A stretch of DNA of 64,000 bases. Origin: an uncultured Candidatus Bathyarchaeia archaeon. Its GTDB lineage: Archaea; Thermoproteota; Bathyarchaeia; 40CM-2-53-6; DTDX01. Location of the stretch: contig CAZSNM010000001.1 of NCBI GenBank assembly GCA_964608455.1, forward strand, positions 11,030 through 75,029. The letters run 5' to 3'. A program made the translations under genes and the position numbers. The stretch's first letter is position 1, and each line of letters opens with the position of its first letter. The notes beneath the pieces are model-generated. The model saw only the letters and a program-made list of their open reading frames with translations, was not told the origin of the DNA and did not search any database. This document shows, one piece after another, positions 24,739-63,519 of this stretch.

Positions 24739-25938
24739 ATGAATAAGCAAACCATTTGTATGAAGGACCTTCTTAAGTTTAGAAAAGATTTATGGATTTT
24801 ATCTTTTGCAGTTTTTCTTCCTTATTTTGCTTCAGGAATGATTGCTGCATTTATAATGGTTTGGCTTAGAGAGTTAGGGGCTTCATTTATTGATGTGGGT
24901 TTAATCAACACTGTTAGCAACCTAGTTTTAGCTTCATCCTTTTTTATTGGAGGGATTTTAAGCGATAATTATAGTGGAAAACCAATATTTTTTTTAGGTT
25001 TATTTTTAACTTTTCTTTCTTCATTGATTTATGGAATTGCAGCATGGCTTCCTATTTGGTTTCTGGTTGGTTTAGGTTTAATTTTTGGTCGAATAGCTAT
25101 AGGATTTAGAGAATCATCATCCTTTCAAATAGTTTATGAAACTTCAGAAAAACATAAGAAAGGCTCATCTTTTGGTCTTTTATCAACCTTTAGACAATTG
25201 GGTTATATAATTGGCCCTATTATAGGAGGATTAATAGCATACTTTTTTGGGTTAAAAGCTCCATTTATATTAGCTCCATTTATAATTCTTATGGCAATAC
25301 CTCTTATTATTAAAATAGGCTTAAAAGAAAATAAATCTGCTAACTTAAGTATGTCTTCATCATTTAAAGAAATTAGAAAGTTTTTAAACTTAAGTTCTGG
25401 AGTATCGATTTTGATTTTTCTTTCTTTATGGGATCAATTCTTTTTAGAAATTGGAAATCCATTCTATATGATTTTTCTTAATGAGGAATTTAATGCTCCA
25501 CCATATATGCTTGGATTATGTTTTACAGTTATGTCTTTAAGCACATTTGTTTTCAGTATGGTGGGAGGAATTTCATCAGACTTAATTGGAAAAAGAAAGC
25601 CATTAATAACTCTTGGAACTTTATTAATGGCTTTAAGCGTTGGTTTAGTTGCTTTCGCATTTAATCCATGGATGTTTGTAGCCAGCTATTTTATAGCTGG
25701 TGTTTCAACAGCAATTTCTAATACTGCTATTCCATCTTATTTTGCGGATGTTTTAAAAGAGAGAGCCTCAACAATTTTTGGTTTCAAATTTACACTTATG
25801 TATTTTGCTGGAGGAATTGCTCCTTTAATTTCAGGTTGGATAATTCAAGCTTTTAATTCTTTAAGGCTTCCATTTATAATAAACTTTATAGGTTTAATTA
25901 TAGAAATTTTTCTTTTAATAATTTTCTTTAAAGAATAA
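24739..25938 (+). CDS. MFS transporter (12 TM)
   Basis: 399 aa with about 12 hydrophobic helices and a two-repeat organisation. Confidence 0.75.
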   Translation: MNKQTICMKDLLKFRKDLWILSFAVFLPYFASGMIAAFIMVWLRELGASFIDVGLINTVSNLVLASSFFIGGILSDNYSGKPIFFLGLFLTFLSSLIYGIAAWLPIWFLVGLGLIFGRIAIGFRESSSFQIVYETSEKHKKGSSFGLLSTFRQLGYIIGPIIGGLIAYFFGLKAPFILAPFIILMAIPLIIKIGLKENKSANLSMSSSFKEIRKFLNLSSGVSILIFLSLWDQFFLEIGNPFYMIFLNEEFNAPPYMLGLCFTVMSLSTFVFSMVGGISSDLIGKRKPLITLGTLLMALSVGLVAFAFNPWMFVASYFIAGVSTAISNTAIPSYFADVLKERASTIFGFKFTLMYFAGGIAPLISGWIIQAFNSLRLPFIINFIGLIIEIFLLIIFFKE

Positions 25939-25961: not shown

Positions 25962-28814
25962 TTAAAGCTTCTTTTCAGCTTCAATAATTAATTCAAATAA
26001 TTTATCGTTTACACGATTAACTTTTTGAGCTATAGATTCTACATCAGAAAGATTAAGTTTTCTTCCAGCTAAAGCGTAAACAGCTATTAAACCATATTTT
26101 CTATATAATTTAGCTGTCGCCTCAGCCTCTTTAATAATGTTTTTATTTCTAATTGATTTAGGTCCTTTTTTAAGCGCATTCAAAACCTCCTCCTCTGTAG
26201 TTGAAAGAATCCCAATAAGCTTTGAACCACATTTAGGACAAGAAAAGTTTTTAGGTAAATTTTTTATCAGCATAGTTTTAATAAATTTTTTGCAGGAAAC
26301 ACATATAAAAAGCTTTACTTCATTTAGTATTCTTGCTTTAGTTGCTTCTATAAGAATTCTCTTCATTTTTTCAGGAGGAATTAAATCTGTTTTTTGACCA
26401 ATTTTTTCTATTCCTAATCTAGCTATGGGTGTTGCTTCATTATTATCTTCTACAATTGCCAACTCTATTTCTCCATTTTTAATTTTGTTTAAAACTTCAA
26501 TTGTTTTTGAAACATCTAAGTCTTTATCATAAGTTTCCTTTAAAGCTTCCTTAAAAATAACTGTATCTTCAAAACTTTTAATTAATTGCTTTAAACTTAT
26601 TCTGCCTGCATCAACCCATTTTGAAAGAGCTCCAAAACGTCTTGCAACATGAATGGCTCTTCTCTTAAACAAACCTGTTTTGATAGTTGCTTCATTAATT
26701 AAATCAATTATCTTTTTTGTTTGAGAAAGCTTTTTTAAAATTTCTATGACTTTTCTTTTTCCATAACCTTCAATAGATTGAATAATTATTCTATATGCAT
26801 CTTGTTGAACTCCAACAGTTGAACCTAACTCTTCAGATAACATATGCCCTATAAGCCTAGCTAAGGTTCTATTAACCAGAGTTCCAAAATGGCATGTAAT
26901 AATTGTGTATTCATTCCAATCTTCAATTACAATTCTTTTATCCGTTGGAACAGGATAACCTTTTTCTATTTGTTCCACAGTTTCAGAAACAGCTTTTAAA
27001 ATTGTTTCTTCCTCAACAAAATATTCTTCAGCTATTTTTTTAACAATTTCCTTTAAGCTTCTTCCAGCTTTTAAATTCTCTTCAATAAAAGCTCTTATCG
27101 CACCAACTTCTTGGGAAACCTCAAATGGAACAGGAATTTCTTCTCCAACCCAGCTTGGAATAGCCCCTGTTGGATCATTTATGGGTTTAACATAAATTTT
27201 ATCTCCTCTAAAGCTTTTAATTAACCATGGACTCCCCTTCATAATAAATTTTGTTCCCGGTTCACCATATTCAGCTACAAATGCTTCATCTAAAACCCCT
27301 ATTGACGCATCTGAATCTTCATCAACAACTAAATATTGTTTTTCATCAGGAATCATCGACATTTCCCTAAAGTAATATTCATAAAGCTCCTTAATTTTTT
27401 TAGGCTTTAAGAAAACTTCATCATTAAAGGAAACCCATGCTAATCTTGGGTATCTTGAATGCATATATTCAAGCACCGCTTTAAGATCTTCTTCGGTTAA
27501 ATTTCTATATGGATAAGCTTCCTTAAACATTTCAAGCACCTCATTAAATGTCCAGCGTTTTTTTTGAAGAAGCAAACCTGCTATTTGATGGGTTAAAACA
27601 TCAAAGGGTTTCTCTGGAATTTTAACTTCCTCTAGACTTTCCTGGTAAACTCTTTTAACTATAACCATTGCCTCTAAAGCATCATCTGAATCTAAAGCTA
27701 TTATTGCTCCTTCAGCAATTCTTCCAACTTTATGTCCGCTTCTTCCAATTCTTTGAATTAACCTTGTAACTTGTCTTGGACTCATATATTGAATTACATA
27801 ATCTATTTTGCCTATATCTATACCTAACTCTAAAGAGCTTGTGCAAACAAGCCCCTTTAACTCTCCCTTTTTTAAGCTTTTTTCAGCTGTTACTCTAACA
27901 AGTTTAGCTAAGGAACCATGATGAATAGATATTGGGAAATCAACATCCCAAACCTTAAATCTGCTAGCTAAAACTTCCGCTATAGCTCTTGTATTGGTAA
28001 ATAAAAGAACAGATTCATGAGATTTAATTAAATTTTTCATTATTCTAAGCCTTGCTGCTACTTCAGGATGGGTATAAAGCTTAGCAGCTAATTTATAATC
28101 TTCATCATTAACTGAAGGAAGCAACAATTTAATTTTAGTAGTTCTTTTTATGGGCACTTTCACTATTTCAATCGATCTATTTGTTCCAGCTAAAAATTTA
28201 GCTACGGCTTCTGGACTTCCTATAGTAGCTGATAATCCAATTAATTGAAAATCACTTTTAGTTATCCATCTTAACCTTTCTAAAGCTAGAGAAAGCTGGC
28301 TTCCACGCTTATCCTCAGCTAATTCATGAACTTCATCTATAATAACGTATTTAACGCTTTTTAAATGCTTCTTCATTACTTTACCAACAAGCAAAGCTTG
28401 AAGCGTTTCAGGAGTTGTAATCAACATATGTGGGGGAGATTTAGCCTGTAAGCTTCTTTCTTTTACATCAGTATCGCCATGCCTAACCGAAACTTTTAAT
28501 CCAAGTTTTTTGCACCACCATTCTAGTCTATCTAGCATATCTCGATTTAAAGCTCTTAAAGGCGTTATATAAAGAATATTTATTCCAGGTGAATTATCAC
28601 CTTTAACAAAAAAATTATTTAAAACTGGTAAAACTGCCGCCTCGGTTTTACCAGTTGCTGTTGGAGCTATAAGAAGAACATTTTTTCCTTCAAGAATTAA
28701 AGGAATAGCTTTTTTTTGAGCCTCTGTAGGAAATGAAAACTTTCTTTCTTTAATTGCTTCTTGAATAGGTTTAATAAATAATGAAAAAACGTTTATGGCT
28801 TCAGTTTTCTCCAT
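25962..28814 (-). CDS. lhr: Lhr-like large superfamily-2 helicase (DEAD/DEAH box), with C-terminal zinc finger
   Basis: Walker A APTATGKTEAA, DEVHEL, and helicase C motifs. The 950-aa protein has a C-terminal CVSCKK...CPKCGSK. Confidence 0.9.
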   Translation of the reverse strand: MEKTEAINVFSLFIKPIQEAIKERKFSFPTEAQKKAIPLILEGKNVLLIAPTATGKTEAAVLPVLNNFFVKGDNSPGINILYITPLRALNRDMLDRLEWWCKKLGLKVSVRHGDTDVKERSLQAKSPPHMLITTPETLQALLVGKVMKKHLKSVKYVIIDEVHELAEDKRGSQLSLALERLRWITKSDFQLIGLSATIGSPEAVAKFLAGTNRSIEIVKVPIKRTTKIKLLLPSVNDEDYKLAAKLYTHPEVAARLRIMKNLIKSHESVLLFTNTRAIAEVLASRFKVWDVDFPISIHHGSLAKLVRVTAEKSLKKGELKGLVCTSSLELGIDIGKIDYVIQYMSPRQVTRLIQRIGRSGHKVGRIAEGAIIALDSDDALEAMVIVKRVYQESLEEVKIPEKPFDVLTHQIAGLLLQKKRWTFNEVLEMFKEAYPYRNLTEEDLKAVLEYMHSRYPRLAWVSFNDEVFLKPKKIKELYEYYFREMSMIPDEKQYLVVDEDSDASIGVLDEAFVAEYGEPGTKFIMKGSPWLIKSFRGDKIYVKPINDPTGAIPSWVGEEIPVPFEVSQEVGAIRAFIEENLKAGRSLKEIVKKIAEEYFVEEETILKAVSETVEQIEKGYPVPTDKRIVIEDWNEYTIITCHFGTLVNRTLARLIGHMLSEELGSTVGVQQDAYRIIIQSIEGYGKRKVIEILKKLSQTKKIIDLINEATIKTGLFKRRAIHVARRFGALSKWVDAGRISLKQLIKSFEDTVIFKEALKETYDKDLDVSKTIEVLNKIKNGEIELAIVEDNNEATPIARLGIEKIGQKTDLIPPEKMKRILIEATKARILNEVKLFICVSCKKFIKTMLIKNLPKNFSCPKCGSKLIGILSTTEEEVLNALKKGPKSIRNKNIIKEAEATAKLYRKYGLIAVYALAGRKLNLSDVESIAQKVNRVNDKLFELIIEAEKKL

Positions 28815-45769: not shown

Positions 45770-46700
45770 TTTTAGTTTCTTTATAAAATGGTTCTCTTAA
45801 CTCATTAGCTTTAAGAAATAATGCTTTTAAAACATCATCTGAAGCATCACTTCTTAAGTAAGGTAAAATATCAACTAAATTGTCGTTTCTCATTAAGCAA
45901 GGCTTTAATTTTCCATCAAAGGTTAATCTCATTCTTGTGCAATGTGCGCAAAACTCTGTATTTTCTATAGGTTTAACAACCTCGATTTTAGCTCCATCAA
46001 TTGTATACACTTTTCTATTATGCATAAAATTTCTTACTTCAATTTTTTCAGCTTTCATACGTAATTTTTCTTCGATGTTATCTAAAGGTAAATGGTATTT
46101 AGCATATTCTTCAAAACAAATATTTATTGGTTCAAATTCAATTAATTGAAGAATAACACCCATTTTTTTTGAAGCTTCTATCATAGAGTCTATTTCGCAA
46201 TCGTTTAACCCTTTTAAAACAACCATGTTTATTTTCACAGGAGTCAATCCAGCGTTAATAGCTGCTTTAACCCCTCTTAATGCTCCATTAATTTCTCCTC
46301 CAGTAATTTTTCTATAGATTATTGGATTTAGCGAAGGTAAACTTATGTTAATTCTGGTAAGCCCCGCTTCTTTCAGTTCAAATGCTAAATCTTCAGTTAA
46401 TAATTTAGCATTTGTAACAAGAGATATATCTTTCAATTTTTGAATTTCCCTCAAACCTTTTATAATCGCTTTAATATCCTTTCTCATTAATGGTTCCCCC
46501 CCAGTAATTTTTACATCTTCTACCCCAAATTCAGTAGCAATTTTAACTACTCTAATTATTTCATTTACGCTTAACAAATTTGTTTTACCAGTATGGCCTT
46601 CTCTATGACAATAAAAACAGTTTTGATTGCATGAAGGTGTTATAGCTATTCTAAGATTTAATAATGGACGATTATATTTATCTAAAAGCAAAAATTTCAC
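45759..46700 (-). CDS. moaA: GTP 3',8-cyclase MoaA (radical SAM)
   Basis: ITPSCNQNCFYCHREG is a CxxxCxxC motif. Size is 313 aa. Confidence 0.9.
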   Translation of the reverse strand: MKFLLLDKYNRPLLNLRIAITPSCNQNCFYCHREGHTGKTNLLSVNEIIRVVKIATEFGVEDVKITGGEPLMRKDIKAIIKGLREIQKLKDISLVTNAKLLTEDLAFELKEAGLTRINISLPSLNPIIYRKITGGEINGALRGVKAAINAGLTPVKINMVVLKGLNDCEIDSMIEASKKMGVILQLIEFEPINICFEEYAKYHLPLDNIEEKLRMKAEKIEVRNFMHNRKVYTIDGAKIEVVKPIENTEFCAHCTRMRLTFDGKLKPCLMRNDNLVDILPYLRSDASDDVLKALFLKANELREPFYKETKTIS

Positions 46701-47762: not shown

Positions 47763-47951
47763 ATGTGTAAGTTGGCTAAGTTATCTGAAGAAGAATTAAA
47801 ATTGATTCAAGAGCTTGAAGCAAAATTAAATCATATAGTTTTAATTGCTTATGAGAAACCTCCTGAAATAGCTAAATTAACAAATGAACAACTTGAAAAA
47901 ATTAAGAATTTAGAAAGTCAATTGAAAGTTAAATTAGTAGCTTACAAATAA
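47763..47951 (+). CDS. Small hypothetical coiled-coil protein with an internal tandem repeat
   Basis: 62 aa. The two halves are LSEEELKLIQELEAKLNHIVLIAYEK and LTNEQLEKIKNLESQLKVKLVAYK. Confidence 0.35.
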   Translation: MCKLAKLSEEELKLIQELEAKLNHIVLIAYEKPPEIAKLTNEQLEKIKNLESQLKVKLVAYK

Positions 47952-47991: not shown

Positions 47992-48456
47992 TTAAGTGGA
48001 AAAATTTGCCCATCTATTTAGGTAATCCCATAAATCTTCTTCAGTAATTCCCTCAATTTCTTCAAGAAATTCATAAAGTTGCTTTAAAGAAGTGTGATGT
48101 CTATACTCTTCACCAAGAATTCCCTCTAAAATCAATTTAACATTTTTTTCATCAACTTTTTTTACAAGTTCCTCCATTTTATTAAGCATTTCCTGTTCTT
48201 CGTTTATATGTTTTTCTAAAGCTTCTTTAATTTCGGTTTTTTCTACACTTGAAAATATTTTTCCCTGAATTATGTCTTCTAAGGATTGAAGAATATGAGC
48301 ATGCTTTAATGAATCCATTCTTATAACATCTAAAAGAAGCTTAACCACTTCATTTATTGTTTTATTTATTGTTGAATTTAATTCATTTGCAACTTTAATT
48401 TCTAACGCTTTTTGTTCTCTAAGCATATTTAAAAATTCTTTATCAGAAGTTTTCAT
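47992..48456 (-). CDS. Hypothetical helical protein (154 aa)
   Basis: Intact ORF. A GGAGG sits upstream of the ATG on the minus strand. I recognise no family. Confidence 0.4.
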   Translation of the reverse strand: MKTSDKEFLNMLREQKALEIKVANELNSTINKTINEVVKLLLDVIRMDSLKHAHILQSLEDIIQGKIFSSVEKTEIKEALEKHINEEQEMLNKMEELVKKVDEKNVKLILEGILGEEYRHHTSLKQLYEFLEEIEGITEEDLWDYLNRWANFST

Positions 48457-48604: not shown

Positions 48605-50257
48605 TTAGTTAAGAATAGCTCCTGTATCTGTTGATGAAACAAGTTTAACATATTTCTTTAAATAGCCTTTAAGAATGGGTTTTTCCGGAGGCTTAACATT
48701 TTTTAAGCGTGATGTTAATTCATCATTTGTTAATTCAACTTCAATAATTCTTTTGGAGACATCAATTTTTATTAAATCTCCATTTTTAATAGCTGCTATA
48801 GGGCCTTTTTCAGCTGCTTCTGGAGAAACATGCCCTATGCATAATCCTCTTGTTCCACCTGAAAATCTTCCATCAGTAATAAGAGCAACAGATTCTCCTA
48901 AACCCATTCCTGAAATTGCTGATGTTGGAGCAAGCATTTCTTTCATTCCGGGACCGCCTTTAGGTCCTTCATATCTAATTATTATAGCATCTCCCTTTTC
49001 TATTTCATTGTTAAAAATAGCTTTTATACATTCCTCTTCAGAATTAAAAACTTTAGCTTCCCCCTTAAATGTTAATGTTCTATTTGAAAGCCCAGCAGTT
49101 TTAAGAACACAACCTTTTGGAGCTAAATTCCCCCATAAAATAGCAAGTCCCCCCTCATTAGCTATAGGGTTATTTATTGAGTGAATAACGTTTCTATCTA
49201 AGTTTCTAGCTTCCTTTATGTTTTCAATTAAGGTTTTTCCAGTTACAGTTTTTACGTTTAAATGAAGTTTTTCTTTTAATTCAAGCATTAAAGCAGGTAT
49301 TCCACCAGCATTATTTAAATCCTCCATGTCATGTGGTCCTCCAGGCATCATAGCACATAATTGAGGAGTTTTTTTATTTAATTCATCAAATAGCGATAGC
49401 TCTATTGTTAAATTCAATTCTTTAGCTATAGCAGTTAAATGAAGAACTGTATTTGTTGAACCGCCTAAAGCTGCATCAACAATTATAGCATTTTCAAACG
49501 CTTCCTTATTCATTATATCTGATGGCTTTAAATTTTCATGAATCATTTCTACAATTCTTTCTCCTGATTTCTCTGCAATCCTTAATTTAGCAGAGTTAAC
49601 AGCAGGAGTTGTGCTGCAATAAGGTAAACTCATTCCTAAAGCTTCAGTAAGACAAGCCATAGTGTTTGCAGTGAACATTCCATTGCATGAACCGCATGTT
49701 GGACATGCAATTTCCTCAATTTCATTAAGTTCTTCTAAAGTTATTTCTCCAGAGTTAACCTTTCCTAAAGCTTCAAAAACAGAAATTAAACCAATTTTTT
49801 TTCCTTTATAAATTCCTGAAAGCATTGGTCCTCCAGTTACTACTATTGATGGTATATTGAGTCTAGCTGCAGCCATAAGCATTCCAGGGGTAATTTTATC
49901 ACAATTTGAAATTAAAACTAAACCATCTAATTGATGAGCTTGAACCATTATTTCTATTGAATCGGCTATTAAATCTCTTGATGGAAGAGAATAACGCATT
50001 CCTTCATGACCCATAGCTAATCCATCGCAAACAGCTATTGTATTAAACTCAAATGGTACTCCTCCAGCTGCGGCTATACCAATTTTAACTCTTTCAACTA
50101 TAGTGTTTAAATGGGTATGCCCTGGAACTAAAGATGTAAAACTATTTGCTATACCTATAAAAGGCTTATTCATTTCTTCATTTGTTAAACCTAAAGCTTT
50201 AAGCAAAGCTCTTTGAGGGGCTTTTTGAAAACCCATTTTAATTGCATTGCTCCTCAT
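48605..50257 (-). CDS. ilvD: Dihydroxy-acid dehydratase
   Basis: Fe-S ligand context [15 protein letters not shown]; the 550-aa protein matches IlvD/EDD along its length. Confidence 0.95.
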
Positions 50258-50325
50258 GTCTTTAACTCTCCCAACTTTTAAAAGCGTAAAATTTATATTT
50301 GGAAACCTTATTAATGTTAAGTTTT

Positions 50326-50463
50326 GATGGGGCTTGAATAAAAACCTTACAGTTTTTACCCAGCTACTTTTAGGTAAAAATGGAAAGGTAGCCCCATCGC
50401 TTGTAACCGTAGTAATTCTTAAATAAGCGCCTTAAGCATTTTATTTTCTTCTTAAGGCGCTTA
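50326..50463 (+). promoter_or_regulatory. ilvD/ilvB divergent leader containing two strong inverted-repeat structures
   Basis: Structure 1 (50326-50398) is nested: GATGGGGCT/AGCCCCATC, then ACCTT/AAGGT, then TTTTTACC/GGTAAAAA. Structure 2 (50424-50463) is a 13-bp perfect palindrome, TAAGCGCCTTAAG-14nt-CTTAAGGCGCTTA, ending 14 nt before the GTG start of ilvB. Confidence 0.4.
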
Positions 50464-50476
50464 AAAAATTGTTTGG

Positions 50477-52201
50477 GTGAGATTATTGAGTAAAGTTTCA
50501 GGCGGTAAAGCTTTGCTTGAAGCTTTAAAAAGAGAGGGGGTAACAATAATATTTGGCATTCCAGGAGGAGCCATTCTCCCCATTTATGATGAGCTTTATG
50601 ACTTCGACATTAGACATGTTTTATGTCAGCATGAGCAATCAGCAGCTCATATGGCTGATGGATTTGCTAGAGTAAGCGGTAAACCTGGTGTATGCTTTGC
50701 AACCTCTGGTCCAGGAGCAACAAACTTAGTTACTGGTATAGCTAATGCTTACATGGATTCTTCTCCATTAATAGCTGTTACAGGACAAGTTCCTAAACCA
50801 ATGATTGGAAAAGATGCTTTTCAAGAAGTTGACATCATAGGGATAACAACTCCAATAACCAAATATAATTTTCAACCTAGAAGTGCTTCAGAAATACCTG
50901 AAATTGTTAAAAAAGCTTTTTTTATAGCTTCAACAGGTCGAAAAGGGCCTGTGCTTATTGACATTCCTAAGGATGTTCAAACAGAGGAATGTGAATTAAA
51001 GTTTCCAGAAAAAGTTACCATAAGAGGTTATAATCCATATAGAAAACCTTGTGAAAAACAAATAAATGCTGTTGTTGAGTTGCTTGCTTCAGCAGAGAAA
51101 CCTATGATTCTTGCTGGTGGTGGGGCAGCCTATCCTGAAGCTTCAGATTACATTTTAAAAATTAGCGAGCTTCTATTAGCGCCTGTTGTCACTTCATTAA
51201 TGGGTAAAGGAGTTTTTCCAGAGGATCATCCTCTATCACTTGGTTTACTTGGAATGCATGGAACATTAGCAGCTAACAAATTAGTTTCTGAAGCTGATGT
51301 TCTTCTTTCTGTTGGAACAAGATTTTCAGATAGAACAACTGGTAAAGTCGATGAATTTTGTAAAGAAACCAAAGTTATACATATAGATATTGATGAAGCT
51401 GAAATTTCAAAAAATAAAAAGGTTGATTTAGCTATTATAGCTGATGCAAGCGAAGCTTTAAAAGCAATTTATGAAGGTTTAATCGCCCGTTTAAATAAAA
51501 GAGAAGAAACAGCCTGGTTTAAAAGAGTTAAAGAATTTAAAGAAGTTTGGGAAGGATGGATATTTGAAGAGGAATCGAGCAAAGAATTAAAACCTATTCC
51601 CATCCTTAAAATCTTAAGAAAAATTTTACCAGTTGAATCTATACTTGTTACTGAAGTAGGCCAAAACCAAATGTGGAGCGCATTATATTTCAAAGTTTTT
51701 AAACCTAGAACATTTATAACATCAGGCGGTCTTGGTACGATGGGGTTTGGTTTACCAGCTTCTATAGGGGCCAAAGCAGCTAAATCTGACGTTCCAGTTG
51801 TTGATGTAGCTGGAGATGGAAGTTTTATGATGACTGAAAATGCACTTTCAGTTTCTGTTGCAGAAAACCTTCCAATAATAGCTGTAATAATAAATAATAG
51901 AGTTCTTGGAATGGTTGCTCAATGGCAAAGGCTATTTTATGGAAAACGTTATTCAGCAGTTAAACTTGATCGAGTGGATTTTGTTAAGTTAGCTGAAGCC
52001 TATGGGGCTCATGGAGTTAGAGTTCAAGATTTAAATGAATTTTCTAAAGCTTTAAAAGAAGCTTTAAAACTTGATGTAACTTCAGTAATTGATGTTCCAA
52101 TATCTCCAGAGGAAAATGTGCTTCCAATGGTTCCTCCAGGAAGTAGTTTAGAGAAAATATTGGGGGTTGAAAAATGGGATTGGGTAATGAAAAAGGGTTA
52201 A
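50477..52201 (+). CDS. ilvB: Acetolactate synthase large subunit
   Basis: ThDP-binding motif GDGSFMMTENALS...NN. Size is 574 aa. GTG start. Confidence 0.93.
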   Translation: MRLLSKVSGGKALLEALKREGVTIIFGIPGGAILPIYDELYDFDIRHVLCQHEQSAAHMADGFARVSGKPGVCFATSGPGATNLVTGIANAYMDSSPLIAVTGQVPKPMIGKDAFQEVDIIGITTPITKYNFQPRSASEIPEIVKKAFFIASTGRKGPVLIDIPKDVQTEECELKFPEKVTIRGYNPYRKPCEKQINAVVELLASAEKPMILAGGGAAYPEASDYILKISELLLAPVVTSLMGKGVFPEDHPLSLGLLGMHGTLAANKLVSEADVLLSVGTRFSDRTTGKVDEFCKETKVIHIDIDEAEISKNKKVDLAIIADASEALKAIYEGLIARLNKREETAWFKRVKEFKEVWEGWIFEEESSKELKPIPILKILRKILPVESILVTEVGQNQMWSALYFKVFKPRTFITSGGLGTMGFGLPASIGAKAAKSDVPVVDVAGDGSFMMTENALSVSVAENLPIIAVIINNRVLGMVAQWQRLFYGKRYSAVKLDRVDFVKLAEAYGAHGVRVQDLNEFSKALKEALKLDVTSVIDVPISPEENVLPMVPPGSSLEKILGVEKWDWVMKKG

Positions 52202-52704
52202 TTTTAATTTCAGCTATAGTAGAGCATAAACCAGGAGTTCTTCATAGAATTTCAAACATGTTTAGAAGAAGAGATTTTAACATTGAAAGTATAAGTGTTG
52301 GTGTAACAGAATTTAATGATTTGGCAAGAATGACCATAACTGTTAAAGGAGATGAAAGAACAGCTGATCAAGTTGTTAAACAAATGGGTAAATTAATTGA
52401 TGTTATTTGCGTGGACGTTTTAGATTGGAACAATTCTGTTCAAAGAGAGTTGGCGCTTATAAAGTTAAAGGCTGAAACACATGAGAAACGATCCGAAATA
52501 ATGGATTACGCCTCAGTATTTAGGGGAAGGATAATTGATGTAGCAAGAGATTCTTTAATAGTTGAAGTTACTGGAGATTCTGAAAAAATTAATGCCTTTA
52601 TAAATTTAACCAAACCCTTTGGAATCATTGAAGTTGCCAGAACAGGCATAACAGCTTTATCTAGAGGCTCTTCCTCCTTAAGTGAAGCTAAACGAAAAAC
52701 TTAA
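52174..52704 (+). CDS. ilvN: Acetolactate synthase small (regulatory) subunit
   Basis: ACT domain start [34 protein letters not shown]. Overlaps the ilvB 3' end. Confidence 0.85.
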
Positions 52705-52748
52705 AGGAAAGAGCTTTAAAATCAAATAATAAAGGGGGAATTCAAATC

Positions 52749-53738
52749 TTGGTGAAAATATATTTTGATAAAGATGCAGATTTAAAGTATTTAGAAGGAA
52801 AAACCATTGCTGTAATAGGTTATGGAATTCAAGGAAGAGCTCAAGCATTAAACTTAAGGGATTCAAAAGTAAATGTTATAGTTGGACTTAGACCTGAAGG
52901 AAATAGCTGGAGACTAGCTGAAAAAGATGGTTTTAAACCTTTCACTATTCAAGAAGCAGCTGAAAAAGGAGATATAATTCATATGTTAATTCCAGATATG
53001 GCTCAACCATCAATTTATAATGAGTATATAGCTAAACACTTAAGAAAAGGTAAAGTTTTAGGTTTTTCACATGGCTTTAACATTCACTATAAACAAATAA
53101 TTCCTCCTCCAGATGTTGATGTAATAATGGTGGCTCCAAAAAGTCCTGGAGCTAGACTTAGGGAAATGTATCTTCAAGGTTTTGGTGTTCCAGCTTTGCT
53201 TGCTGTAGCTCAAGATGTTAGCGGAAAAGCTAAGCATATTGGGTTAGCTATAGCTAAAGCTTTAGGGTGTACAAAAGCTGGAGTTATTGAAACAACCTTT
53301 AAAGATGAAACTGAGAGTGATTTAATAGGAGAGCAAACAGTTTTGGTAGGTGGATTAATGGAGCTAATTAAAAAAGGATTTGAAGTTTTAGTTGAAGCGG
53401 GCTATCCGCCTGAACTTTCATATTTTGAAGCTTGTAACGAAGCTAAATTAATTATGGACCTTATTTATGAAAAAGGATTAATTGGAATGCTTAGGGGAGT
53501 ATCTGAAACAGCAAGATTTGGTGGATTATCTATTGGGCCAAAAGTTATAGATGAACATGTAAAAGAAAATATGAGGAAAGTTGTTAAAGATGTTCAAAGT
53601 GGAAAATTTGCTGAAGAATGGATAAAAATATCAAAGGAAAAACCCCAGCTTCTTGAAGAAAAAATTTCATTAATTGAAAACCATGAGTTGGAGCAGGTTG
53701 GAAAAAAAATAAGAAAAATGTCTGGAATAGAAAAATAG
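52749..53738 (+). CDS. ilvC: Ketol-acid reductoisomerase
   Basis: NADPH-binding [20 protein letters not shown]. Size is 329 aa. Confidence 0.93.
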
Positions 53739-53760
53739 AAGATTTTTAAAGGTTTTTTAA

Positions 53761-55023
53761 ATGAATTTAACAGAGAAAATTTTAGCTAAAGCAGCAAACT
53801 TAAAAGAAGTCCATCCAGGTGAAATAATTAATGCTAAAATAGATTGCGCAATGGTGCATGATCTTACAGCCCCATTAACAATAGATGCTTTTAATGAAAT
53901 TGGCATAAAAAAAGTTTGGGATCCAAATAAAATAGTGGTTATTTTTGATCATTGTGTTCCAGCAAGCTCTGTTGAAGCTGCTGAACTTCATAAAAAAGTT
54001 AGAAATTTTGTGAAAACTCAAGGAATAAAAAACTTTTTTGATGTTGGCTACGGAGGGATTTGTCATCAAGTTATGGTTGAAAAAGGCTTTGTTAAACCTG
54101 GTGAAGTTATTGTAGGTGCCGATTCACATACATGTACATATGGTGCTTTAGGAGCCTTCGCTACAGGAATTGGATCAACAGATATGGCTTATGTTTTTGC
54201 TACTGGAGAGCTTTGGTTTAAAGTTCCAAAAGCAATTAAAATTCATGCTTCAGGAAAATTTCAGAAGTTTGTTACTCCAAAAGATTTAATTTTATATGTA
54301 ATTGGAAAACTTGGAGCTAATGGAGCAAATTATATGAGTTTAGAATTTACTGGACCAGTTATAAAAAATATGAGTATTGATGGTAGATTAACTATATGCA
54401 ACATGGTTGTTGAAGCTGGAGCTAAATCAGGTATTGTTCCACCTGATGAAAAAACTTTAGAATATATTAAGTTAAGAAGCAAAGGAAAATTTAATTTTCA
54501 AGAAAGCGATAAAAATGCTGTTTATGATAAAGTTTTAGAAGTTGATTGTGAAAAACTTCAACCAATGGTTGCTTGTCCAAATTCCGTTGATAATGTTAAA
54601 CCTATAAGTGAAATTTCTGAAGTGGAGGTAGATCAAGTTTTTATAGGTTCATGCACTAATGGACGAATTGAAGATTTAAGAATTGCAGCTCAAATCTTAA
54701 AAGGTAAAAAAATTAATAATAATGTTAGATTAATAGTTATTCCAGCTTCTCAAGAGATTTACTTGCAAAGTTTAAAGGAGGGATTACTTGAAATTTTAGT
54801 TAAGGCTGGTGCAGTTATAGGGAATCCAAATTGTGGACCATGCTTAGGCGGTCATATGGGTTTACTTGCTTCTGGAGAAGTTTGTGTAAGTACATCAAAT
54901 AGAAACTTTATTGGGAGAATGGGGAGCTCTTCAGCTAAGATATATTTAGCTTCTCCGGCTACGGCTGCTGCATCAGCTATTTATGGAAAAATTGTTGATC
55001 CAAGAGTGTTTGGAGAGAATTGA
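53761..55023 (+). CDS. leuC: 3-isopropylmalate dehydratase large subunit (aconitase family; could also serve homoaconitase/citramalate isomerase roles)
   Basis: Aconitase-family Cys ligands (GSCTNGR; NCGPCLG). Size is 420 aa. Confidence 0.88.
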   Translation: MNLTEKILAKAANLKEVHPGEIINAKIDCAMVHDLTAPLTIDAFNEIGIKKVWDPNKIVVIFDHCVPASSVEAAELHKKVRNFVKTQGIKNFFDVGYGGICHQVMVEKGFVKPGEVIVGADSHTCTYGALGAFATGIGSTDMAYVFATGELWFKVPKAIKIHASGKFQKFVTPKDLILYVIGKLGANGANYMSLEFTGPVIKNMSIDGRLTICNMVVEAGAKSGIVPPDEKTLEYIKLRSKGKFNFQESDKNAVYDKVLEVDCEKLQPMVACPNSVDNVKPISEISEVEVDQVFIGSCTNGRIEDLRIAAQILKGKKINNNVRLIVIPASQEIYLQSLKEGLLEILVKAGAVIGNPNCGPCLGGHMGLLASGEVCVSTSNRNFIGRMGSSSAKIYLASPATAAASAIYGKIVDPRVFGEN

Positions 55024-55026
55024 AAA

Positions 55027-55518
55027 ATGAAAGTTTTAGGTAAAGTTTTAAAGTTTGGAGACAATATTGATACTGATGTTATTCTTCCAGGAAAATATCT
55101 AGTGCTTACCGATCCTAAAGAATTAGCTAAGCATGCTATGGAAGGTTTAGATAAGGAATTTTCAAAAAAAGCTGAGAAAGGAGTAATAATAGTTGCTGGA
55201 GAAAACTTTGGATGTGGTTCAAGTCGAGAACATGCTCCTATAGCTTTAAAAAACGCTGGAGTAAAAGCTATAATTGCTAAATCTTTTGCAAGAATATTTT
55301 ATAGAAACGCTATAAATATAGGTTTACCCGTTTTAGAATGTAAGGAAGCATTTGAAAAAATTGAAGAAAATGATGAAGTATTAATAGATTTAAGTAATGG
55401 GGAAATAATTGATAAAACCAAAAACTTGACTTTAAAATTTATTCCGCTCCCTTCATTTCTTTTGGATATTTTAAATCAAGGAGGATTAATTAAAAAACTT
55501 AAAAATTCTTTAAAGTAA
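55027..55518 (+). CDS. leuD: 3-isopropylmalate dehydratase small subunit
   Basis: [14 protein letters not shown] matches the aconitase swivel domain signature. Size is 163 aa. Confidence 0.88.
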
Positions 55519-63108: not shown

Positions 63109-63519
63109 TTATAAAGATTTTAAAATCATTAATGTATTAGTTTTTGTTACTCCTTCAACTTCCCTAACCTTATCTATACAGGAATTTAATTCATCAATAT
63201 TTCCTGCTGAAAGAAAAACAACTATATCTGATTCTCCAGTAACTTCATAAATTTTTTCAACTCCATTTATTTTTTTTAATTCAACTGAAACTTTAAATGT
63301 TGGAATAGATGGCTCAACAGAAATAAGCATTATAGCTGAAGCCTCCTTTTTAACTTCTATTGTAAAACGCTTTAAAATTCCTGTTTCAACAAGCTTTTTT
63401 ATTCTTTGTCTTACTGCAGCTTCTGAAATCCCAATTTGCTTGGCTATTTTTAAAAACGGAATTCTTGAATCTAATTTTAAAATTTCAATTATTTTTTTGT
63501 CAATTTCATCTATAACCAT
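63109..63519 (-). CDS. Lrp/AsnC family transcriptional regulator
   Basis: DKKIIEILKLDSRIPFLKIAKQIGISEAAVRQRIKKL HTH followed by a RAM domain. Size is 136 aa. Confidence 0.85.
   Translation of the reverse strand: MVIDEIDKKIIEILKLDSRIPFLKIAKQIGISEAAVRQRIKKLVETGILKRFTIEVKKEASAIMLISVEPSIPTFKVSVELKKINGVEKIYEVTGESDIVVFLSAGNIDELNSCIDKVREVEGVTKTNTLMILKSL

Follow-up and report, generated by a model that had tools for sequence, protein, structure and literature searches.

What is the role of two strong inverted repeats that lie between divergent genes for branched-chain amino acid synthesis in an archaeon? The question arose from a stretch of 64,000 nucleotides (hereafter the window, whose positions are used throughout) from an uncultured, low-GC Bathyarchaeia archaeon; window and genome both have about 30% G+C. 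There, ilvD on the minus strand and the operon ilvB-ilvN-ilvC-leuC-leuD on the plus strand are read away from each other. The genes were confirmed by Pfam; the divergent ilvD/ilvB arrangement had been described in an initial annotation made from the sequence alone. That annotation had noticed the two repeats, called here structure 1 (50326–50398) and structure 2 (50424–50463), and had proposed either an RNA-level control element, of the attenuator or riboswitch-like kind, or operator sites for a dimeric regulator. The decisive feature of the locus is one that it had missed, a leader peptide. Its reading frame runs through structure 1 and ends, after a run of valine, isoleucine and leucine codons, at the foot of structure 2. 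The leader is probably an element of the attenuator type, in which ribosomes translating the short frame would sense the branched-chain amino acids.

A short reading frame with a conserved run of Val, Ile and Leu codons

The comparison set consisted of 13 orthologous ilvB leaders from three clades, at 62–98% IlvB identity. Same-species ilvB upstream regions came from L081, L082 and L109. The further relatives in the clade of the window were L083–86 (about 93% IlvB identity), L087 (78%), L088 (76%) and L090, where the locus is the same and the part of ilvB that the contig contains is about 73% identical. A second clade comprised L114, L119 and L117 (about 66%), and a third L027, L120 and L121 (about 62%). 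The best IlvB matches were from Bathyarchaeia, and identity to species-representative genomes reached only 64%.

The leader frame of the window is unannotated and open back to 50328. It ends in ...SLVTVVILK*, the last codons being GUA GUA AUU CUU AAA UAA. The frame was open in all 13 orthologues: no stop was found in the last 28 codons, versus 64 and 22 stops in the two other frames, the chance of such an open frame being 0.11–0.30 per lineage. Insertions and deletions preserved it, whether of 12 nt (in L083), of 3 nt (several cases) or, elsewhere, of GUA triplets. The peptides were absent from a collection of 15 billion predicted proteins and have therefore never been called as genes.

Inspection of the whole intergenic region revealed that its most conserved stretch, GTAGTA(GTA)ATTCTT, lies between the two structures. 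It encodes the peptide tail VV(V)[IL][IL], invariant in the 13 leaders (VVILK, VVILN, VVLLN, VVIII, VVILH, VVVILH, VVILV). The peptides were otherwise unrelated, this C-terminal run and the position of the stop being their only conserved parts. Substitutions in the run stayed within the branched-chain class (AUU/AUC/CUC, followed by CUU/CUC/AUC). Val in the run was always encoded by GUA, although in the genes of these genomes only 6–30% of Val codons are GUA. The in-frame stop was always kept, at the base of the structure 2 hairpin or 0–5 nt before it, and 56–68 nt before ilvB. As assigned by Pfam, the ilvBNC-leuCD operon encodes enzymes for all three amino acids of the run. Two hallmarks of an attenuator, a potentially translated short frame ahead of an operon for amino-acid synthesis and a cluster of codons for the end products, can be seen in the sequence of the predicted transcript.

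In the L114/L119/L117 clade and in L121 the neighbour is not ilvD, and the leader is nevertheless retained; it therefore belongs to ilvB.

The only start candidate for the window frame is UUG 50334, located inside the conserved block GGGGCTTGAATAAAAAC. A mini open reading frame (mini-ORF), MGLE*, overlaps this codon (Table 1) and was also present in L083, L090, L109 and L087. In L120 and L027 the end of the equivalent mini-ORF overlaps the leader start (ATGA, ATGATTGA), and in L121 the 5′-proximal AUG, as read from the sequence, is in frame with the leader peptide. The mini-ORF may have a part in the leader. The mRNA is probably nearly leaderless, with the leader frame started at a non-AUG codon or by reinitiation.

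Both structures are conserved as helices of the plus-strand RNA

Structure 2 is a perfect 13-bp inverted repeat, TAAGCGCCTTAAG and CTTAAGGCGCTTA, with a 14-nt spacer, as the initial annotation had stated. Its folding energy is −18 kcal/mol (z = −4.8). The stem begins with the triplet UAA (50424–50426), the stop codon of the leader frame. Structure 1 had been described as three nested helices of 9, 5 and 8 bp; its minimum-energy fold (−27.4 kcal/mol, z = −4.1) does have three, of 9, 5 and 9 bp. The outer arms of structure 1 pair perfectly over 9 bp and enclose a 17-nt repeat that is 82% complementary (50344–50360 and 50373–50389). The GUA-GUA-AUU-CUU run follows the 3′ arm, its first GUA coming 11 nt further on. 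Both repeats were found at the positions reported for them and are beyond chance, none of 200 shuffled sequences being as stable in either case.

Comparative alignment of ilvB upstream regions, a check that had been proposed with the annotation, revealed that the structure 2 arms are invariant in the window clade (76–100% IlvB identity), whereas the spacer is 12, 14, 15, 16 or 20 nt long and differs in sequence too. The two distant clades have hairpins of −16 to −25 kcal/mol at this position, but their stems are unrelated in sequence: GCGCGAAGCC/GGCUUCGUGC in one and CCCUGaCCU/AGGCAGGG in the other. These stems contain G·U pairs and show compensatory changes within each clade. In six of six lineages the hairpin was more stable on the plus strand than on the minus strand, by 2–9 kcal/mol. 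It lies 10–15 nt upstream of the ilvB Shine-Dalgarno sequence.

For structure 1, only the outer helix was conserved in the relatives, the inner helices and the interior sequence diverging freely. Among eight distinct sequences of the outer stem, 81% of the alignment cells were paired, versus 31–58% with a slid partner. Both partners had changed in seven of 14 pairs; 5 of 500 shuffles attained this number. There were 15 G·U cells and 5 A·C cells, an excess which argues that the pairing of structure 1 works on plus-strand RNA. From the G·U pairs and the compensatory changes it follows that both structures belong to the RNA of the plus strand, that is, the ilvB strand. In the 13 leaders this long-range stem closes the leader frame. 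Other readings of structure 1, as a C/D-box or H/ACA RNA or as a k-turn, were rejected by inspection, there being no CUGA or ACA boxes and no G·A pairs.

Four perfect inverted repeats with arms of at least 12 nt and loops of 3–30 nt were found in the window, versus 0.85 expected from first-order Markov simulations. Structure 2 is the most G+C-rich of the four and the only intergenic one. The other three (25596–25634, 28623–28656 and 46379–46414) have arms of 12–14 bp and loops of 10–12 nt; all are A+T-rich and all lie inside coding regions.

A search of 241 million metagenome records for the exact palindrome returned the same locus in L090 and L109, and unrelated bacterial hairpins. Among contigs of about 60% G+C (L089, L092, L093, L098–L103, L105–L107, L110, L111), the same palindrome arms, 12 and 10 nt long (AAGCGCCTTAAG ... 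CTTAAGGCGC), enclose an 18-nt loop, ACCCGCGGGGGAGGGGTG. This palindrome sits in a highly conserved element of about 120 nt on 14 unrelated metagenome contigs, which looks like a conserved structured RNA or a bacterial repeat, unrelated to the archaeal leader.

On the minus strand, a 58-codon open reading frame (ORF; 50370–50546) spans structure 2 and the ilvB start. It is probably spurious, because the G·U evidence favours the plus strand.

A promoter-like box upstream of structure 1

A box resembling a B recognition element (BRE) followed by a TATA element was found upstream of structure 1. It reads AAAGCGTAAAATTTATATT in the window, and its homologues read CCGATAAGTTTATTA, GCGTTAAATTTATTAG or CCGATACGCTTAATAA. 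About 32 nt separate the centre of the box from the GATG in the 5′ arm of structure 1, a distance fixed in all three clades. From the box the RNA is predicted to begin at structure 1; we infer a transcription start near 50320–50323, just upstream of the 5′ arm. The predicted leader of the ilvBNC-leuCD mRNA would then be about 165 nt long.

A second BRE/TATA promoter could be read from GTAGTAATTCTTAAAT, directly upstream of structure 2. This reading was rejected, because other clades have TTCTTCATTAG or TTCTCGTCTAG in place of the "TATA" letters, yet their codons remain in the same classes and their stop remains in frame. Leaderless-promoter statistics computed from mechanical ORF starts were uninformative in the A+T-rich sequence of the window.

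The ilvB start and its ribosome-binding site

The conserved start of ilvB is a weak one, UUG 50486, found in 13 of 13 lineages and preceded by GGGUGAG. The initial annotation had placed the end of the palindrome 14 nt before an ilvB GTG. The distance is right for the GTG at 50477; this triplet, which falls within GGGTGAG and is out of frame in L087, is however probably a piece of the Shine-Dalgarno sequence and not the start of ilvB. Conservation of a UUG start across 62–100% IlvB identity is unusual, and the UUG may belong to the regulation.

For the window clade, the RNAalifold consensus contained structure 1, structure 2 and a pairing of the regulatory codons with the ilvB ribosome-binding site. 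In this fold structure 2 is extended into a long hairpin whose base is formed by the codons and the Shine-Dalgarno/UUG region. The cells of this base were paired in 93% of cases, versus 32–51% with a slid partner, and one pair was compensatory. In the L114 clade the regulatory codons pair instead with codons 2–3 of ilvB.

The L027 clade has only a local hairpin, 30 nt upstream of ilvB (for example L027 2975–3010), in which UUCAAUUAG pairs with the ilvB start region, AUUGGUUGAA. The Shine-Dalgarno sequence is in its loop, and one compensatory change was seen among three sequences. It is a candidate for a second, clade-specific structure at the start codon. In the window and in L090, masking the 5′ arm of structure 2 let its 3′ arm sequester the Shine-Dalgarno sequence and start, the unpaired probability falling from 0.67 to 0.39. 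As a general sequestor of the ilvB ribosome-binding site the 3′ arm was rejected, this behaviour being restricted to those two sequences.

Table 1. Features of the ilvB leader and its surroundings in the window.
Feature	Coordinates	Strand	Remarks
BRE/TATA-like promoter box (AAAGCG TAAAATTTATATT)	50281–50299	+	Homologous box at the same distance in three clades
Structure 1, 5′ arm GAUGGGGCU	50326–50334	+	Contains the 5′-proximal AUG; abuts the leader start codon
Mini-ORF AUG GGG CUU GAA UAA (MGLE*)	50327–50341	+	Starts at the 5′-proximal AUG; overlaps the leader UUG
Leader peptide frame, 30 codons + stop	50334–50426	+	Candidate start UUG 50334; stop TAA
Structure 1, 3′ arm AGCCCCAUC	50390–50398	+	Inside the leader frame, codons Val-Ala-Pro-Ser
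Regulatory-codon block CUU GUA ACC GUA GUA AUU CUU (Leu Val Thr Val Val Ile Leu)	50400–50420	+	Core GUA GUA AUU CUU, 50409–50420
Structure 2 hairpin	50424–50463	+	Arms 50424–50436 and 50451–50463; 14-nt pyrimidine-rich loop
A/U-rich spacer AAAAAAUUGUUU, Shine-Dalgarno GGGUGAG (50474–50480) and 5 nt before the ilvB start	50464–50485	+	Alignments
ilvB-ilvN-ilvC-leuC-leuD, regulated operon	50486–55518	+	Pfam; synteny conserved in relatives
ilvD (context, outside the element)	48605–50257	−	Pfam

A model for sensing by the ribosome

The geometry of the leader suggests how the position of a ribosome would be coupled to the opening of structures 1 and 2. When charging of the Val, Ile or Leu tRNA is low, a ribosome would dwell on the codon run and cover the 3′ arm of structure 1. 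From ribosome dimensions, it would in this position keep the 5′ end of the leader open and leave structure 2 folded. With an ample supply of these amino acids it would proceed to the stop, where it must unwind the G+C-rich base of structure 2, and be released. Structure 1 could then reclose behind it, hiding the leader's own start. In this manner the position of the ribosome would be converted into ilvB expression.

Two outputs can be envisaged. The preferred one is translational and is modelled on the window clade: the codons would pair with the ilvB Shine-Dalgarno sequence and start, forming the base of the long hairpin tipped by structure 2, and a stalled ribosome would hold this helix open. 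We give it low to moderate confidence within the overall model. Alternatively, transcription may terminate prematurely in the untranslated spacer, at oligo-U or through a factor (FttA/aCPSF1).

Several observations weigh against the model. For the translational output, the energy of the duplex between codons and ribosome-binding site was no better than in shuffled sequence; the pairing falls mostly on invariant columns and was not predicted in the L027 clade. On these shuffle energies, the pairing of codons with the Shine-Dalgarno sequence was rejected as a conserved switch and is kept as a clade-level possibility only. In models of a free leader and of a stalled or a terminating ribosome, accessibility of the ilvB ribosome-binding site showed no consistent difference. 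The pairing of leader segments was also computed under a mask for a ribosome standing on the Val codons, on the Leu codon or at the stop, and no alternative (antiterminator) helix common to all clades was found. As to the start of the leader frame, in the window clade UUG 50334 has no Shine-Dalgarno sequence, and the 5′-proximal AUG is out of frame. Finally, mutation of the candidate regulatory codons in the ilvB leader of Streptomyces coelicolor had no effect (PMC1262725), and a frame of this kind alone therefore does not prove attenuation.

Termination of the bacterial kind also has evidence against it. A terminator scan of the leader found no intrinsic terminator made of a hairpin and a U-run. 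Downstream of structure 2 the sequence is A-rich, followed by only a U3–4 tract 5–9 nt away. In the source genome, gene ends carry T5–6 runs without hairpins. A bacterial-type terminator is thus absent, since structure 2 lacks a U-run and gene ends lack hairpins, and the output would have to use archaeal machinery. Because archaeal termination rules differ, the missing intrinsic terminator does not exclude termination.

Alternative explanations

The reading that survives best beside the sensing leader is that of a constitutive element without amino-acid sensing: an upstream open reading frame that damps ilvB translation, a 5′ stem and an internal hairpin that govern mRNA stability or processing, or a functional small hydrophobic peptide. 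The want of a conserved switch structure speaks for it, as do the position of structure 1 at the predicted 5′ end of the RNA, where stabilising stem-loops are found, and the S. coelicolor leader, whose comparable codons did not matter (PMC1262725). Conservation in the peptide, however, is confined to its C-terminal Val/Ile/Leu run and the position of its stop. The amino acids of the run are precisely the three that the operon behind it produces, and its Val codon is the minority one throughout. These are features of regulatory codons and not of a functional peptide or a generic upstream frame, and we consider a constitutive element unlikely.

A structured RNA that binds a protein or a metabolite (riboswitch-like, or similar to TRAP or PyrR targets), to which the short frame would be incidental or auxiliary, could account for the two conserved helices and for the invariance of the structure 2 stem sequence in the window clade. 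The stretch GUAGUAGUAAUUCUU is likewise conserved at the nucleotide level, synonymous positions included. Yet this single-stranded stretch varies as codons do: the Ile/Leu class is kept, (GUA)n changes by whole triplets, and the stop stays in frame. The interior of structure 1, moreover, has neither conserved sequence nor conserved fold, and the stems of structure 2 are unrelated in sequence between clades. Rfam returned no match at the gathering threshold, and only chance-level ones at E values up to 10; ARAGORN found no tRNA-like gene at the locus. Such an RNA is quite improbable. Of the RNA-level control first proposed for the repeats, the attenuator branch is supported by the conserved plus-strand helices, the promoter box upstream of them and the Val/Ile/Leu leader frame, and nothing supports the riboswitch branch.

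The other mechanism first proposed has structure 2, and perhaps structure 1, as a DNA operator for a dimeric regulator (Lrp/AsnC) repressing ilvB and/or ilvD. A perfect 13-bp palindrome with arms invariant at 76–100% IlvB identity is what such a site might look like, and two Lrp/AsnC genes are indeed present in the window, as noted initially (1672–2121 and 63109–63519). They are 13–48 kb away, however, and not syntenic with the leader. The spacing of the arms varies even in close relatives (12 to 20 nt, above), which fits a rigid dimer poorly. Distant relatives keep the hairpin and replace its sequence, and their G·U pairs, being A·C mismatches on the other strand, would be irrelevant in duplex DNA. 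The conserved promoter box is about 130 nt upstream of the palindrome, which does not overlap it. No second copy was found in related metagenome contigs or in the window, where copies of the palindrome arms did not exceed chance. Lrp boxes are A+T-rich, unlike the G+C-rich arms of structure 2. An operator is therefore very unlikely. The last reading, that the symmetry arose by chance in an A+T-rich intergenic region, has next to no probability: short A+T-rich repeats do abound in a genome of about 30% G+C, but the z-scores of −4 to −6, the 0 of 200 shuffles folding as well, the G+C-rich structure 2 and above all the conservation in three clades with covariation refute it.

Distribution of the leader and neighbouring features

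Further copies were sought with a leader profile (nhmmer) in 80 ilvB loci from other Bathyarchaeia, Nitrososphaeria and methanogens, and none was found except that of L027; nor did those 80 other archaeal loci have a comparable inverted repeat upstream of ilvB. The leader was absent from lineages with leuA upstream of ilvB (L112, L116). Within the 64-kb window, no other attenuator-like short frame was convincing.

In L116, where the leader is absent, an ORF of 44 aa has been called between leuA and ilvB (L116 1672–1806). It ends in ...NFYINIVMVT*, 27 nt before ilvB, is moderately rich in Ile and Val, and is not followed by a hairpin. It could be a degenerate or a different leader.

Adjoining ilvD in the window are an ORF of 62 aa (47763–47951, plus strand) and one of 154 aa (47992–48456, minus strand). 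They gave no significant Pfam match, only a weak one to DUF1848 (E = 2e-4), and their order next to ilvD is kept in relatives down to 76% IlvB identity. A 19-nt inverted repeat, 95% complementary, has arms 298 nt apart (50192–50210 and 50509–50527) in the N-terminal coding regions of ilvD and ilvB; the ilvB mRNA would contain just one of them. It is probably due to both arms encoding a similar ...KALL.AL... peptide on opposite strands.

Comparison with known systems

Attenuation by a translating ribosome is a textbook mechanism of bacteria. The ermC and cat leaders are experimentally shown cases of bacterial translational attenuation by stalled ribosomes. In archaea, no example of transcription attenuation or antitermination was known to Blombach et al. 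in 2021 (PMC8448881), and full-text literature searches for an archaeal amino-acid leader peptide found none. Known archaeal regulation acts on promoter recruitment, unlike the control proposed here for the leader; the predicted promoter itself has the usual BRE/TATA layout. The evidence leans towards the ilvB leader being the first ribosome-mediated leader-peptide amino-acid attenuator in Archaea, an element native to a subset of Bathyarchaeia whose output would pass through occlusion of the ilvB ribosome-binding site or through termination dependent on oligo-U or FttA (aCPSF1).

The likeness to the bacterial ilv attenuators (ilvBN and ilvGMEDA of Escherichia coli, ilvBNC of Corynebacterium glutamicum, MTIIRLVVVTARRLP) is one of plan. 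There too, a short frame in the leader of an acetolactate-synthase operon carries a Val/Ile/Leu codon run beside a stable hairpin, with a further helix upstream, and the operon makes the amino acids of the run. The choice of a minority codon is also shared; the control codons of the C. glutamicum ilvBNC leader are CUU and GUA (PMC11857589), as here. The differences are the archaeal host, the lack of an intrinsic terminator and of an identifiable antiterminator, and the absence of sequence homology. In addition, the leader stop forms part of the hairpin's base, the leader frame is enclosed by the 5′ stem, and little or no untranslated sequence probably precedes the frame, which would be started at a non-AUG codon or by reinitiation.

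The element most resembles the ilvB leaders of actinobacteria, in which runs of Ile, Val and Leu codons overlap a hairpin (Seliverstov et al. 2005, PMC1262725): in both, the codon run is directly next to the hairpin or overlaps it, and a classical antiterminator is not seen. The actinobacterial hairpins are followed by poly-U, whereas structure 2 is not. In the LEU element upstream of leuA, a run of Leu codons pairs with the downstream Shine-Dalgarno sequence, forming the base stem of a compact structure (PMC1262725). The predicted consensus fold of the window clade has this same architecture. It differs in its base stem, which is weak, being made of A-U and G·U pairs, does not outdo shuffles and is not conserved in all clades.

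A paused ribosome in a short upstream frame that would remodel the structure around a downstream ribosome-binding site is a feature that the proposal shares with the ermC and cat leaders and with the polycysteine short ORFs of mycobacteria. The latter are also leaderless and sense their cognate amino acid (bioRxiv 10.1101/834739). Those switches have been established by experiment, whereas the archaeal one is proposed from sequence.

The locus is a concrete, testable candidate: its regulatory codons and its hairpin are defined, and three clades supply natural variants. It could reveal whether the position of the ribosome controls archaeal RNA polymerase or translation initiation, and whether FttA/aCPSF1 is involved. 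More generally, the comparison of leaders can uncover unannotated leader peptides in uncultured archaea, and the regions upstream of the trp, his, leu and thr operons can now be searched systematically in this way.

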